Positions 35,997 through 55,326 of a DNA stretch of 64,000 nucleotides are shown here, piece after piece. The notes beneath the pieces are model-generated. The model saw only the letters and a list, made by a program, of their open reading frames with translations. It was not told the origin of the DNA and did not search any database. Numbering within the stretch: the stretch's first letter is position 1; every line of letters begins with the position of its first letter. Position numbers and translations under genes: made by a program. The DNA comes from Paramecium tetraurelia (lineage: Eukaryota). The stretch is from contig CT868017.1 in assembly GCA_000165425.1 (NCBI GenBank), positions 124,001-188,000 of the forward strand, given 5' to 3'.

Positions 35997-37003
<1,007 letters not shown>

Positions 37004-40092: not shown

Positions 40093-41324
40093 TCATAGAG
40101 CAGGGAAATCCTTATCATCCAATTGAATTCCTTATTCCTAATAAATTAATATAAGAAATTACTTATTATCTTTGTACAGGCTTCTTTTCTTATCTATCAC
40201 CTCCTCTTCTAGCCTTTTCTCCTCTTTCTTAATCTCTAGTATTGTTGTCTCTGTTTTATCTGTCTCCTTTATATTATCTATCTCCTTTGTATTATCTGTC
40301 TCCTCTATCTTATCTGTCTCCTTTTTCTTGTCTATCTCCTCTTTCTTGTCTTTCTCCTCTTTCTTATCTGTCTCCTCTTTCTTGTCTATCTCCTCTTTCT
40401 TATCTGTCTCCTCTTTCTTATCTATCTCCTCTTTCTTATCTATCACCCTTATATTGTCTATCTCCTTTGTATTATCTATCTCCTCTGTATTACTTTTCAC
40501 CTCTATCTTATCTTTCACCTTTGTATTGTCCTTATTCCTATTATTCGTTTTATCTTTCTCCTTATTATTATTCACCTTCTTGTTATTATTGTTATTATTA
40601 TTAAGGTTATTCATATTATCTTCTTTCACCTCTTTCACCTCTTCTTTCATTCTTTTCTTGAGTTTAATTAGTAAATCCCAAATACTCAGCAGCTTAAGTA
40701 TTCAATTCAGATCTGTATGTTGATTATTATTATTTTGTTTTTTTTTACTTAGATTCTTGTTCTCTTTTCTCATCTTCTCTAGTTTTAACAACAAAGAGTT
40801 TTTCTTTCTTCAAGGCTTCTTCATCAAGTTTCTTTGGAGCTTATTGTTTGACTTCAACTTATTTTAAGACTTCATCAACATTCTGAGGATAATAAATAAA
40901 TTGATACAGCGCCTCTTTGTTAGTAATAATCAGCAAGAGTCTTTTCTGGGGCTGGTGGTTAAGTTGGTTGAGTTGTCTACTCATTTTTGCCTTCTTAATG
41001 TGCATCACCTGAGGTTTTTTCTTTTGCCACATATTTTTCTTCCTTCAAATCATCCTTGTAATTTCCCCAATTATTTCTGCCTCCGCCTTCTTTTCTTTAT
41101 TCCTTGCCTCTGCCAGTGCCAGATTGTCTGTCTTTAGGGTGTGGCTCAGCAGGGACTCCCTTAGTCTTAGGAGCGGGATTGTGATGTTGAGTGTTTTCCT
41201 TTACTACTTATTCAGCAGGGATGACCTACTCCTTGTTGTTGTTTTTTTTATTCTTTTTTTGGTGTTATTCAGGAGCTTCTTCTGTGTCGGAGAAGTTGAG
41301 AACGTTGAACAAATTATTACTCAT
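40093..41324 (-). CDS. SERBP1/HABP4/Stm1-like RNA- and ribosome-binding protein
   Basis: MSNNLFNVL, DRQSGTGRGKEQRKEGGGRNNWG, EKTLADY, C-terminal DDKDFPAL*. Confidence 0.85.
40260..40529. repeat. 15 x 18-bp coding minisatellite (G-D-R-Q-[E/Y/D]-[R/K])
   Basis: Units such as ttatctgtctcctctttc repeated 15 times inside the SERBP1-like CDS. Confidence 0.9.
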
Positions 41325-43617: not shown

Positions 43618-44846
43618 TCAGAGAATGCTACTTCTATTTGTGTTGCCTTAATTTAATTTTAGATGACCTTTGGTTTTCTCGAAATGATCTTGAAAAACAA
43701 ATGCTTCTTGCAAGAGCATCTCAAGTTGTACTTCTGTCCATTCCTTAGTTGGTAAATTCTATAAAAATATGACTGCTTCACTCATATTCTTTGATTTGAT
43801 CTATTTTATTTTGTTGATTTACTTCAGGTGCACATTTAAGAATTAGGTTTGTTACTGTGTACACATGCAAATTGGCCATTTCATCGCCTTCAGCTAAATA
43901 AGTATCCAATAATCTGATCGTTAAGGATAATGGAAACTCTCTTATCAATAGGCATAACACCCATCTAAAGGCGAAGTGATTCAAATCTATTTGTTGATCC
44001 TCAAAGTATTGATACAAGGGATAGTCAAGCTTAAGAGTATTTATTAATTCTTACTATTTTGATGAGTTCCCTGATTTTTACATATGCTTCCTAAACGCCT
44101 GGTTAATTTGCAGTGAAATAATCTTAAATGTTTTCAATTATTTTGCATAAACACCAATAAATATCAGCTTCAATATCAATCAAGATTTCTTCTGGCAATT
44201 TGTCAAAATTAGAAGGGACATCAAAAGAATTGAAATCTATTGGAACATATTCATTCAAGAATACTACAACTAAAGGCGATGCCACATCATTGATTCCTTG
44301 AACATAGCCACTCATAGGATGTCGCATATTCCATATAAATAAAAGCCTCTTAAACATTTCTTGAATCCTGGGATCTCTAAATAGTTTATAATCAGGCTGA
44401 GTTCTCAAGACATCATTTTATATAATCTTTATGATTTTCCTCTCGTTTTCATCCCTTTCTTGTTCGTTCATATGTTCGTAATAATTTCTTAATGTATTGT
44501 TGATAATCTTATCTTTTCTTTAATAAAATAGTGGTCTGACTCATGTGATTAGGAGGAATATATTTTACAATTAATTTCCACACTTTAGCTCTATATTCTA
44601 GTAATATTTATCGAAAACAATACCATTAGGTATTCCTCTCCATGTGAGTTTCTTAAGAGCCTCCAAATCAATTATTTGTTGTTCAAGTACAAGTTCAAAT
44701 TGCTCTAATTTTTTTTAATCCTGAATCGTTGAGGAAATTTATTTTTTTTGAAATGGCGATTTATTATAAATTTCATTTAAGTTAGTCTTATACAGAGAAC
44801 TTTAAGAATCTGTTTTTTATCCAAAGAATTTCTTTAAAAATGCCAT
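43618..44846 (-). CDS. TBC1D22/Gyp1-like Rab GTPase-activating protein
   Basis: LTWRGIP, IIQNDVLRTQP, WNMRHPMSGYVQGINDV, IEADIYWC, FAFRWVLCLLIREFP. Confidence 0.9.
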
Positions 44847-48562: not shown

Positions 48563-49462
48563 TCAAAAAGTCTTCAAATTCAACAAATTTGATACTCCAT
48601 TTCCAGTTGGCACCCATGTAATATTTGGACTCTTGGCTAATTACTCGGCAATATGCTTAGCTGTCTCTAACTTCTTTATCTCGATTTAAGCTATTAATCT
48701 AATAAATATTTCTACCTGTTCCGTATTATTTGACTGCATCATTGATCAATCTGGCTGCCTCTGATTCTCCTTCAGACAATATGACTTTGGCATTCTTTTC
48801 TTCTTCATCTCTCAACACAATGAACTTCTATCTCTCAGCCAATTATTAAGCCACTTGCTTTGCCTCAATAGCCTAAGCATATTCCTTCATAAATCCTAAA
48901 TGAGTGATTGACACATCATCCAATACTATCTTAAACTCCTTGGCTCTTTCAATCAAACCTTCCTTAATTTCTTATGAGATCTTCTCTCTCATTTTGATTA
49001 ATTGATCTGCATCATATTAAGCAACTACTGCCTTTAACACCTCATTTGCAATTGATGGGAGAATCTTCTCTTCATAATTCAAACCAATAGTTCTAATCTA
49101 TTAGACAGTCAATTTACTTATAAATCTCAGGCAAATATGATTCAATGGGTTTGTGAAGCATTCTGATTGCAATATCAACTGTTTACAAGTCTTTTGTACC
49201 AGTATGAGATGCCACTGTTTTGGGTTACAATCTAACCTCTGCAACAATTGGAGACTAACATAAATTCTACCATGTATACTTAAATAACAGGGATGAAAAA
49301 ATGCATTCCTTCCCCATAGACATTTTCCTTGACTCCTTGGAAACGATCAAATATTAATCCTCTCTAGCCTCCGTCTACTGTATAAAAGAATGATTTAAAT
49401 AGTATTCCACCACCAACAAGTACGGATCCTGCTGTTAAAATTAGATTTGCGGCTCTTTCCAT
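48563..49462 (-). CDS. PHB1: Prohibitin 1
   Basis: [61 protein letters not shown]. Confidence 0.95.
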
Positions 49463-49945
49463 TTTTAATTATTAATTATGGACAATAAACAAAAATTAAT
49501 CAATCTAATAATCAAAGAACATAAATTTATAAATGACCTAGATTATTGACAACTTGTTGAGGTAATGGAATTATGGTAATATTTCAGAATCATGATGATG
49601 AACAATTGAATAAAGAAACTAAATTAATTTTAATGCAATACTTTTTAATTAAATTTACTCTCTATATATACATACATTGATTCTTTATGTGGTACATATA
49701 TTAACTACTTAATCATGAAGTTATTCAAAACATCCTAATATTTTGGATAGTTGAATTATTTTTCAAAAGGGAATTGTTGGAAACAACAATATGGATAGAG
49801 GGTTATTAATAAAATGGAAAGACAATCCTTATAAATTTAGACTTGGATTGGAAAGACAATTCTCATCAATTTGGTCTTATAAAAAAGGTCCATATGGGAA
49901 TGAATGTTGAACATATAAAATTATGATTAATAAATATATTTTATC

Positions 49946-50363
49946 ATGCAAGGAAAGAAAGTGTTGGTGGCTGATGATGAACCCTTTGCTCAAAATTTAT
50001 TGAAGATGCTGTATGGTGCTCTGTAAGTAGAATGCGTAGTGGTGTCTAATGGAAAGGAAGCCTTGGAAGCGTATCAATAATCACCTAATTTTGTTCACGT
50101 ATTGATGGATATTCATATGCCAGTGATGGACGGATATGATGTAAATGCTTAAATTAATTCTTAGTCTGCAAAGTAAATCAGAGCTCATGAAAAAGCAAAA
50201 GGATTACCTAGATGCAAGATACTTGGCCTCAGTGGAGGTAAATATAATTATAATTTGATTCAAAGATGGTGATCCTAAGACAAAGGCAGCATGCATCACC
50301 GCTGGTATGGATGATTTGTTAGTCAAGCCATTGAAAAAAGACCAATTATCATAGTTTTTATGA
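49946..50363 (+). CDS. Stand-alone CheY-like response regulator receiver protein
   Basis: KVLVADDEP, NGKEAL, VLMDIHMPVMDGYD, ILGLSG, AGMDDLLVKP; two tiny introns. Confidence 0.9.
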
Positions 50364-51026
50364 TTTTAACACATCTTATTTTTATCATATTCTGCAGTAA
50401 TTAATATAGATAATAAGTGAAAATTATAATAATACCTAAAATGTAGAAAGTAAGAATGCACAATAATGATATAGAATCATGTTCTCTTTATTTTGTTTTC
50501 TACTTCTTCGAACAAAGTTCAGATATATAATTAATATAAAAATCTTGTGAATATTTTTAGCAAAAGAGTTTCTGCATTATTATTATTTTTTATTTGATTG
50601 GATACCCAAATGGAAAATAAGGAACAGCAGAATGTTATGGTAACATTGATAAAATAAACCTTGTTTTTAGTGTGAATAATATGCAGCCATTCAAAGATTG
50701 GTTTGATCAATTTATTACCTATTGAAATAATAAGTAAGTGATTCAAAAAAAGCAGGAAAGACCTAAAAAACTATACATTTTAGATGAGGCAACAGTGAAT
50801 GCAAGATTTGTGATGTTGTGTTTATGAGCTTTTAGCAACTCTACTCTCACGGCCAGAAGTATTTAGAATTCCAAAAGATTGATAGTCTCTCCTACTTTCA
50901 TCAAGGTTACTCTTAATACAGGTGGTTACTTAAGTTGGAGCAAGTCTGTTTGTTGTCCCTGAAGTGTTCAAACCATACTTGTTTTTTAGATAATGATTTA
51001 TATTGTAGCACACACAAATATAATTA

Positions 51027-53091: not shown

Positions 53092-55326
53092 ATGGTTGAT
53101 ACTCCTTCCGTTCAGTTCCTTGGATATGTGACACCTTAACTTTCATCCCATTACACAATTTTTGAGGAAAAGGATAATGTGCTCATCTACCTCAATTACT
53201 TTGAGATCGATAATTAGATGCTAATTCTGCTGTCTCCCTGTCCAATCGAATATAGTCAATAAAGTAAAATTCATCATCATAATCCCTTTCAGGTTTCATA
53301 GTATTTAGCTCCACAATCCGTCCTCGATACAGAGTTTCTCAGAAACTCATGGTGTCTCTGGACTAATTTAAATCGATAGTGAGCTTCAACATTCTGCTAT
53401 TTGGGGATTTATACTTAACAAACAAAACACAATTCCAGCCTTTCAATGCTCGAAACTTTTAGACTTTTATAAGTCCCAATCCTTTGCCATAAATTAATAT
53501 TTTGGTGGTTCCTGGAGTTTACAGTATTCACTTTGATCAGATATACGAATTCCTGGAAAGCAAATTAGCGTAAAAAAATGAATAGATTTAACCTCAACCT
53601 AAATTTGATATTCTTGTTTACACTACAAATCCTTACAGAGTGTGCAACATTCAATACTAATTTGATAAAACTACTTAATTAATCGATTATTTCTTTTATT
53701 TGATTGACAACCAAATCTATACCGACATAAACGAGATTCAATAGTAATTCATGTTGGAAGACATTAAAGGCACGCTATTCGATTTCTTGTAAGGTAAAAA
53801 TTACCCAAATTCCACACCCAATATTCAATCCATTCGAAAGAACTTCACTTACAATGCTTAGGACACTAAATTCTATATATTGCAACAAATCAAAGGCTTC
53901 AATTAGATTCATTAAAATGCTGATTTTGTGAAGATATGTAATATAATTTACAAATATAAGTTTAGTCTGTCAAAATTGTGAAGATGGAAACAAATGTACT
54001 TTGTTATCCTCTTAGAATCAATAGATTTATTTCGCTGGGTAAAGTTCACTATTTAAATATCCTCTATCTGTCAAATTTTTGGATTTAGTTTCTAGGACAT
54101 TTTCGCAATTGATTTGCCAGTTATTTCTGATAACAAATGCATAGAATGCCACTTATAAAATCAATAGATTGGCCAACCTTGATAGAGTTGAAGAAGCTAT
54201 TTCCTGTCCTTCATTCAATTCTCAAAGAAATTATCAAAATTTAGAAATGCTTGGTGACGTTGTAATTAAGTATTTAACATCTGCAATGTTATTTGAAGAC
54301 TCTAAGTACAAAACTGAAAACACTCTGTCCTCAGCAAGAGTTCGTTTAATCACTAATAAACACTTAAGCTCAATTTATGGAAATCTCAAATTGAATGCAA
54401 TGAATTTTAAAATTAACTCCAAGAAACTTCTAAATCACATGATGATGATTATCAATGAACATGAGGATTCCAAACTATCTCAAAAACAATAAGCAGATAT
54501 ATATGAAGCCTTATGCGGAGCCTGTTACATTAAAAATTATTAATTCAAAGATTTGATGGATTTTTTTAAATTAACAAAGTTAGAATTTTAAGGCACTGTT
54601 CCACAATACTATAAAGGAAACCCTCTTATTGATTTCTCCATTATCTCTCAGGATCCAGGTAAGGATAATGATTATCCTTTAAAAAAATAAATTTTAAAAA
54701 GGCCTTTCTCTGAAACTGTAAAATTTGACCAACCTTTTGAGGAATTTTAAGATTATCTAGGATGCAAATTGAATTTGATTGCCGAAGCTATGACTGTCGA
54801 TTAATTTGAAAGATTAGAGTTCTTTGGAGATGCAATCCTTGAATTATTGGTTATTGTGAATGTCCATAAGGAATGTGAAAAACTATACTACAATCCTAGA
54901 TAACAATAATTATGTCGAGAAGGCAAAATTACTTAAAAATTGTTACTTTGTCCAGGGATGTTGCATACAGCTAAAATATCTTTACTTGACAGTGGATTTA
55001 TGGGTACAATGGCTATCTACCATAATTTCCATTAGTATGCGAGAAACCTTCCAAAGGAGATTTAAAATAGTATAAAAAAAGCCTTAGCATTATTAAGACA
55101 GGATCAATTTACTGATTTTAGGAGAATCAATTAATATTCATAGTAGATTCCAAAAATCATGAGTGATCTATGGGAGAGTGTGGCAGCTTGTATTTTAGTG
55201 GAGTATGGATGGGAAAAGGTGATTGAAATCTATGGAGAAATGTACAAACCCTATATCAAATATTTTGTTGATAACATATCTTTGATTTACGACTTTTGTC
55301 AAAGCACTGGAAATTTAAAATAATGA
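53092..55326 (+). CDS. DCL: Dicer-like protein with two RNase III domains and no helicase
   Basis: RNase IIIa NYQNLEMLGDVVIK...ADIYEALCGA; RNase IIIb FERLEFFGDAILE...PKIMSDLWESVAA; about 730 aa. Confidence 0.9.

Follow-up and report, generated by a model that had tools for sequence, protein, structure and literature searches.

The question raised by this locus is whether Paramecium tetraurelia has a separate gene for a lone receiver domain and, if so, what a receiver with neither a kinase nor an output domain might do in a ciliate. The window, i.e., the entire stretch of 64,000 nucleotides that was analysed, contains at 49946-50363 (+) a short gene that an earlier note had described as a stand-alone CheY-like response regulator. 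The best explanation, held here with moderate confidence from sequence comparison and a structural model, is a nuclear gene of the aurelia group of Paramecium for a 121-aa single-domain response regulator, which would accept phosphoryl groups and act as a modulator or sink in a relay.

Under the ciliate code, the receiver gene starts with the ATG at 49946, ends with a TGA stop at 50361-50363, and is divided on the + strand into three exons by GT..AG introns, one of 24 nt and one of 28 nt. Exon 1 (49946-50140) covers codons 1-65, from beta1 to the beta3-alpha3 loop, and includes D10/D11, D55, and two in-frame TAA codons (Gln). It is followed by intron 1 (50141-50164; GTAAAT..TAG, phase 0) and by exon 2 (50165-50237), which covers codons 66-89 and the first base of codon 90 and provides alpha3, beta4, and S88. 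Intron 2 (50238-50265; GTAAAT..AAG, phase 1) precedes exon 3 (50266-50363), which runs from the rest of codon 90 to codon 121 and the TGA and supplies alpha4, beta5 (with K110-P111), a short alpha5, and one in-frame TAG (Gln). The spliced product is a single receiver domain of 121 aa, and the start, the stop, and the motifs previously read from the DNA (ADDE pocket, LMDIHMPVMDG, LSG, and VKP) were all recovered in this gene model and its product. Four Gln residues are encoded by in-frame reassigned stop codons, Gln27, Gln45, and Gln69 by TAA and Gln119 by TAG. The window is AT-rich (GC 0.24-0.35), and its long reading frames stay open on condition that TAA and TAG encode Gln; GC is 0.39 in the receiver CDS versus 0.21-0.23 in its flanks, and 0.23 in the upstream intergenic region (49464-49945, +) that the receiver gene has in common with a divergent prohibitin-like gene. 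Because of this GC profile and the in-frame TAA and TAG codons, the receiver gene was assigned to the host and not to a contaminant.

Transcription was assessed with three oligo-dT, stranded RNA-seq runs (X19, X20, and X21), which were picked by their common species label and mapped on 49200-50900. On the + strand RNA channel, depth was 3-20 across 49941-50339, 1.5-7 in 50340-50396, and about zero in 50397-50510, and coverage over the receiver gene was confined to about 49941-50396. The gene is moderately expressed, from a separate transcript about 450 nt long. Intron 1 is removed, since the end of exon 1 is fused to reads that begin at 50165 (three listed reads in X19, seven in X21, and no listed read in X20), and the eight residues that it would encode are absent from the orthologues in the alignment. 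Intron 1 is divisible by three in length and free of in-frame TGA, so that retention would add these eight residues; retention of intron 2 would end the frame early, before beta5. Among the listed reads of the three runs, no joint or loose end was found at intron 2, which rests on gap-free colinearity with the 121-aa orthologues, on a depth dip in the bin that spans it (50226-50282), and on the early end of the frame if it is retained. Two neighbouring introns in the same reads, at 49255-49279 (minus strand) and near 50639-50670, are 25 and 31 nt long, respectively, and by this likeness the two introns of the receiver gene are of host type.

Several side observations concern the same reads and introns. 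A retained intron 1 would escape nonsense surveillance, and its eight added residues would lie in the beta3-alpha3 loop, beside the active site. The read-through gene calls of two relatives, P0005 and P0006, stop about five residues further, so the introns of these relatives carry an in-frame stop; introns that are a multiple of three in length and free of stops are selected against in Paramecium. Reads of the minus-strand channel were also present at 49941-50339 (depth up to 5 in X19, about 1 in X21, and none in X20) and may represent low-level antisense transcription; the prohibitin-like neighbour, unlike the receiver gene, was strictly single-channel in all three runs.

Exons 1 and 2, read through intron 1, matched Pfam PF00072 with 43.4 bits (E 4.4e-11, cut-off 30.2), exon 3 alone matched profile positions 80-108 (E 0.0026), and the orthologues P0003 and P0004 scored 76.2 and 75.2 bits, respectively. 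The catalytic set is complete, comprising D10 and D11 in VADDEP, D55 in LMDIHMPVMDG, S88 in LSG, and K110 and P111 in VKP; these residues are retained in P0003, P0004, and P0008, and D11, D55, K110, and P111 are invariant in a 14-sequence alignment. The AlphaFold2 model was built for P0003, which is 92% identical to the window protein, with the 14-sequence alignment, and showed a canonical (beta-alpha)5 arrangement of five strands and five helices with a mean pLDDT of 94.2. Strands of this model end at residues 9, 55, 88, and 109, and D55, S88, and K110 are located at strand ends. Helix alpha5 is short (residues 114-118 of 121 in the P0003 model), and Leu107 stands three residues before K110, at the K-3 position, which holds the aromatic switch residue in CheY; the position is not aromatic here. 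Given Leu107 and the short alpha5, the modelled alpha4-beta5-alpha5 output face may be atypical.

Orthologues were sought by a word-indexed search of 5.8 billion proteins, which gave five matches among seven candidates of similar length. P0003 of P. sonneborni (121 aa) and P0004 of P. pentaurelia (121 aa) align with the window protein without gaps and are identical to it at 111 and 105 of 121 positions, respectively, and the first 121 residues of P0008 of P. bursaria, likewise gap-free, are identical at 82 of 121. The orthologue models begin at the same Met, and the three genes agree with the window gene in identity, start, splice-derived junctions, and catalytic residues, differing in that they come from another species or strain. 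The database model of P0008 has 245 aa, of which 124 low-complexity residues past the receiver contain no Pfam domain; rather than a real extension, this part is probably due to a model that overruns the true stop codon. The cluster of P0003 has 11 members. The aligned orthologues indicate that the receiver gene is conserved genus-wide and is at least as old as Paramecium, an age that follows from its four reassigned stop codons, its two introns, and its presence in P. bursaria. P0003 and P0004 are named 'unnamed protein product' or 'Response regulatory domain-containing protein' in the databases and P0008 is a hypothetical protein, so the protein was already public for sister species under automatic annotation and is less novel than the earlier note implied; no functional study of P0003, P0004, or P0008 was found in the literature searched.

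When 1.84 billion representatives were searched exhaustively with HMMER for relatives outside Paramecium, 286,713 proteins were obtained at E <= 0.001, none of which exceeded 50% identity outside the protein's own cluster. Because the best-150 list was ranked by score summed over several receiver domains, multi-receiver proteins dominate it, and the library carries neither names nor taxa; among the matches listed, the closest non-Paramecium single domains were 34-43% identical and were located in proteins of 299-1441 aa. Scores were distributed flatly among the relatives, and AT-rich matches were no closer than GC-rich ones. Pfam analysis of nine of these non-Paramecium proteins showed all to be multi-receiver and eight to contain HATPase_c: six combine HisKA-HATPase_c with two to four receivers (one also with Hpt), two have HATPase_c with receivers, and one has three receivers only. 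When the P0003 model was compared with the PDB by Foldseek, the best match was GacS D1 (TM 0.94), further top matches were the REC domain of Chaetomium HK3, Sln1-R1 bound to Ypd1, the receiver of Candida Sln1, and the RpfC receiver, and CheY structures ranked below the receivers of hybrid kinases. A sequence search of the PDB placed 8phn, 3c97, and RcsC ahead of the CheYs, with similar E-values. In NCBIfam, P0003 gave partial matches to the receiver regions of PRK15347, RcsC, LuxN, and BarA, none of which reached the family cut-off, and these hybrid-kinase models scored higher than the CheY model NF041367 (CheY_Halo), for which 46.4 bits were obtained versus a cut-off of 200. The nearest entries in a protein-atlas feature search were generic clusters of bacterial stand-alone regulators of about 125 aa, and a metagenome scan for related loci returned two of 67 pattern matches, both 38% identical and bacterial-looking, neither being a Paramecium locus. 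In sequence and in modelled fold, then, the best relatives are the receiver domains of hybrid histidine kinases and not CheY. The label 'CheY-like' is apt for the architecture of the protein but not for its family, given the CheY model score (46 bits vs 200) and the hybrid-kinase receivers among the best matches.

These relationships shape the role that we propose. As all residues of Mg2+-dependent phosphorylation are present and conserved, the product is more probably a working phospho-acceptor than a pseudo-receiver, with D55 as the predicted, Mg2+-dependent acceptor. Receivers cannot pass phosphate to one another, so the donor would have to be the His of a kinase or of a histidine-phosphotransfer (HPt) protein. 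Ciliate hybrid histidine kinases would be the donors, most likely by way of an HPt intermediate, a route favoured because the nearest sequence and fold relatives are HPt-facing receivers of hybrid kinases; with identities of 34-43% and flat scores, 'HPt-facing' should be taken as a lead. Having no output domain, the protein would either drain or compete for phosphoryl groups, as the plant regulator ARR22 and bacterial sink CheYs do, or signal by phosphorylation-dependent protein binding. A role inside the relay (competitor, sink, or buffer) is preferred because of the likeness to HPt-facing receivers and the lack of an output domain, and we lean toward a modulator or sink inside the relay, which would resemble plant ARR22. 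The proposal of the earlier note, the end point or phosphate sink of a ciliate His-Asp relay, is plausible.

The alternative that survives best is an output of the CheY type, in which the phosphorylated protein would diffuse and bind a target outside the relay (a ciliary, channel, or enzyme component) as the end point of a pathway. We regard it as possible but rather unlikely: the architecture resembles that of bacterial single-domain regulators, the catalytic residues relevant to switching are all intact, and conservation across the genus is accompanied by moderate expression, but the score to the CheY equivalog model lies far below its cut-off, hybrid-kinase receivers outrank CheY structures, and the surface expected to carry such an output has Leu at the K-3 switch position and a short alpha5.

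The same non-aromatic K-3 residue and short alpha5 would suit a phosphorylation-independent adaptor, a pseudo-receiver that has kept the fold and binds its partner constitutively, and single-domain receivers with non-canonical roles do exist. This reading is nevertheless improbable, as none of the five catalytic positions is lost here or in three other Paramecium species, down to 68% overall identity. Pseudo-receivers are defined by the lack of such catalytic residues, according to PMC12632262, which also speaks against an adaptor.

That the locus represents the final exons of a larger gene for a hybrid histidine kinase, or what decay has left of one, is very improbable, even though its nearest relatives are receivers embedded in such kinases. 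TGA stops are present in all three + frames of the 483 nt upstream (49464-49945), including one at 49901 in the frame of the CDS, and no domain was found there; these stops leave no room for kinase exons. Over the eight bins of 49485-49940, X20 and X21 had no coverage and the depth of X19 did not exceed 0.9, with about 0.5-0.9 in three bins at 49770-49940 (+); together with a low-depth spliced contig on the same strand (49551-49813), this slight coverage is what a kinase tail could claim from the RNA, but no joint leading from upstream into the receiver gene was listed for X19, X20, or X21, and the reads show no link to upstream exons. Next upstream is a minus-strand Band_7/SPFH (prohibitin-like) gene, which starts at 49463, 483 nt upstream of the receiver gene and divergent from it; this gene and the short coverage of the receiver gene's own transcript identify the latter as something other than the tail of a hybrid kinase. 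The orthologue models, with the same Met start and 121 aa, agree. When the fetched proteins of at least 100 aa, almost all of them two-component proteins, most hybrid kinases, and a few with an Hpt domain, were used as tblastn queries against the 64-kb window, all of the 504 alignments fell between 49781 and 50360, and no HisKA/HATPase_c signal, kinase gene, or HPt gene was detected elsewhere in the window, an absence from 64 kb that means little in a eukaryote. A kinase core is absent from both the polypeptide and the transcript of the receiver. The description of a stand-alone receiver without a kinase or output domain is thus sustained by the extent of the transcript, the upstream neighbour on the opposite strand, and the single domain. 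The outcome that would have refuted the earlier note, transcripts that join these exons to a larger hybrid kinase, was not observed in the reads.

The surroundings of the receiver gene were also annotated. A small upstream ORF (49755-49907) had no Pfam match and no homologue, and no Rfam match was found in 49300-50700. In Pfam analysis of eight neighbouring ORFs, the next + strand gene, which begins after about 50550, was found to encode a membrane/DUF818-like product. Run X3 contained a contig at 49586-49813 (+; depth 3.8) preceded by 10 bases found at 49550-49559, which implies that a 26-nt GT..AG intron (49562-49587) was spliced out of a transcript at 49551-49813 (+), upstream of the receiver gene. 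This transcript, in which no ORF with a homologue, Pfam match, or Rfam match was found, may be a minor isoform with a long 5' UTR or a separate non-coding transcript. Within the prohibitin-like gene at 49202-49463 (-), three positions (49222, G>A; 49231, T>C; 49364, C>T) were mismatched in all three runs, each time in between about a quarter and 60% of the RNA reads, and junction-spanning loose ends at 49254 differ from the window exon by some three bases, which points to transcripts that cross-map from a close paralogue or from a different allele or strain. Comparable mismatches were not listed within the receiver gene. About 3.5 kb downstream, a Dicer-like ORF at 53932-55323 (+) has two stretches that match the RNase III domain (PF00636, E 6.4e-26), and a RabGAP-TBC ORF lies at 44028-44540 (-), about 5.4 kb upstream; both are unrelated to two-component signalling. 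Further away, a (TTA)n microsatellite of 68.7 copies (36192-36397) falls inside long ciliate-code frames as poly-Ile, poly-Asn, or poly-Gln, and an 18-nt tandem repeat of 14.3 copies (40256-40513), within the minus-strand ORF 40118-41044, reads as hexapeptide repeats rich in Arg, Gly, Asp, Gln, and Glu.

An origin by bacterial contamination or by recent horizontal acquisition from bacteria has practically no standing, for although receiver domains are overwhelmingly bacterial and the nearest non-Paramecium matches look so, the gene has four reassigned stop codons and two spliceosomal introns, is flanked by host genes, has orthologues in four Paramecium lineages including P. bursaria, and exceeds 50% identity with its own cluster alone among 1.84 billion representatives, the best outside domain being 43% identical. 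The Gln stop codons, the GC content, and the likeness of its introns to those of its neighbours likewise bear out the earlier claim of a host gene with host-type introns.

With the modulator or sink inside a relay as the preferred reading, the setting in which the protein would act can be sketched from published work. Two studies report 70 HKs in Tetrahymena, of which a single one is not hybrid (PMC6324907), and 83 HPKs, the majority with receiver domains (PMC1557398). With these 70-83 Tetrahymena genes, almost all for hybrid kinases, ciliates are among the eukaryotes with the largest histidine-kinase repertoires. PMC3019232 mentions HKs in P. tetraurelia, and PMC4029085 describes P. bursaria transcripts, annotated with phosphorelay GO terms, that increase in cells bearing symbionts. 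A 2015 census describes HK, HPt, and RR proteins as 'almost absent in Alveolates', and its main text contains none of the words Paramecium, Tetrahymena, and ciliate (PMC4558063). In the literature searched, no description was found of ciliate stand-alone receivers, of ciliate HPt proteins, of this protein, or of partners downstream of ciliate histidine kinases. As a sequence feature the protein is ordinary, a textbook receiver domain, and receiver-only regulators are known in plants and bacteria; as a conserved, expressed, and, by its sequence, catalytically intact receiver-only protein, it is a small and tractable entry point into the ciliate pathway. A bolder reading, which we consider quite improbable, makes the receiver the shared diffusible output of the dozens of membrane-bound hybrid kinases of ciliates, a eukaryotic CheY that, when phosphorylated, would couple environmental sensing to the ciliary or membrane-excitability machinery and so to swimming; if true, it would give these kinases a common downstream partner linked to swimming behaviour.

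Beyond its orthologues, the protein can be compared with three known groups. The receivers of hybrid kinases (GacS D1, 7QZ2; Chaetomium HK3 REC, 8PHN; Sln1-R1/Ypd1, 5KBX/2R25; and RcsC, 2AYZ) have the D-x-x-M-P-x-M-D-G loop in common with it at about 24-33% identity and, in fold, an rmsd of about 1.1 A, but are fused to HisKA or HATPase_c, whereas the Paramecium receiver is encoded and transcribed on its own. Bacterial CheY and other single-domain regulators resemble it in size (about 120 aa), in consisting of a lone receiver, and in having a complete active site; sink CheYs, DivK, and Spo0F belong to these bacterial single-domain response regulators. The Paramecium gene differs from CheY in its introns and ciliate code and in the non-aromatic Leu107, and the bacterial context of motor and CheA is impossible in a ciliate. 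The third group is found in plants, and it renders incomplete the premise of the earlier note that eukaryotic receivers are mostly fused to other domains, since type-A and type-C ARRs are established receiver-only regulators of eukaryotes (PMC6370222). In that source, ARR22 is presented as a phosphohistidine phosphatase or sink that acts strictly inside the relay and depends on its phospho-Asp (PMC6370222). Both ARR22 and the Paramecium protein are eukaryotic receivers without an output domain, but ARR22 comes from a different eukaryotic supergroup, and the likeness to this type-C ARR is one of functional analogy alone, with no claim of orthology.
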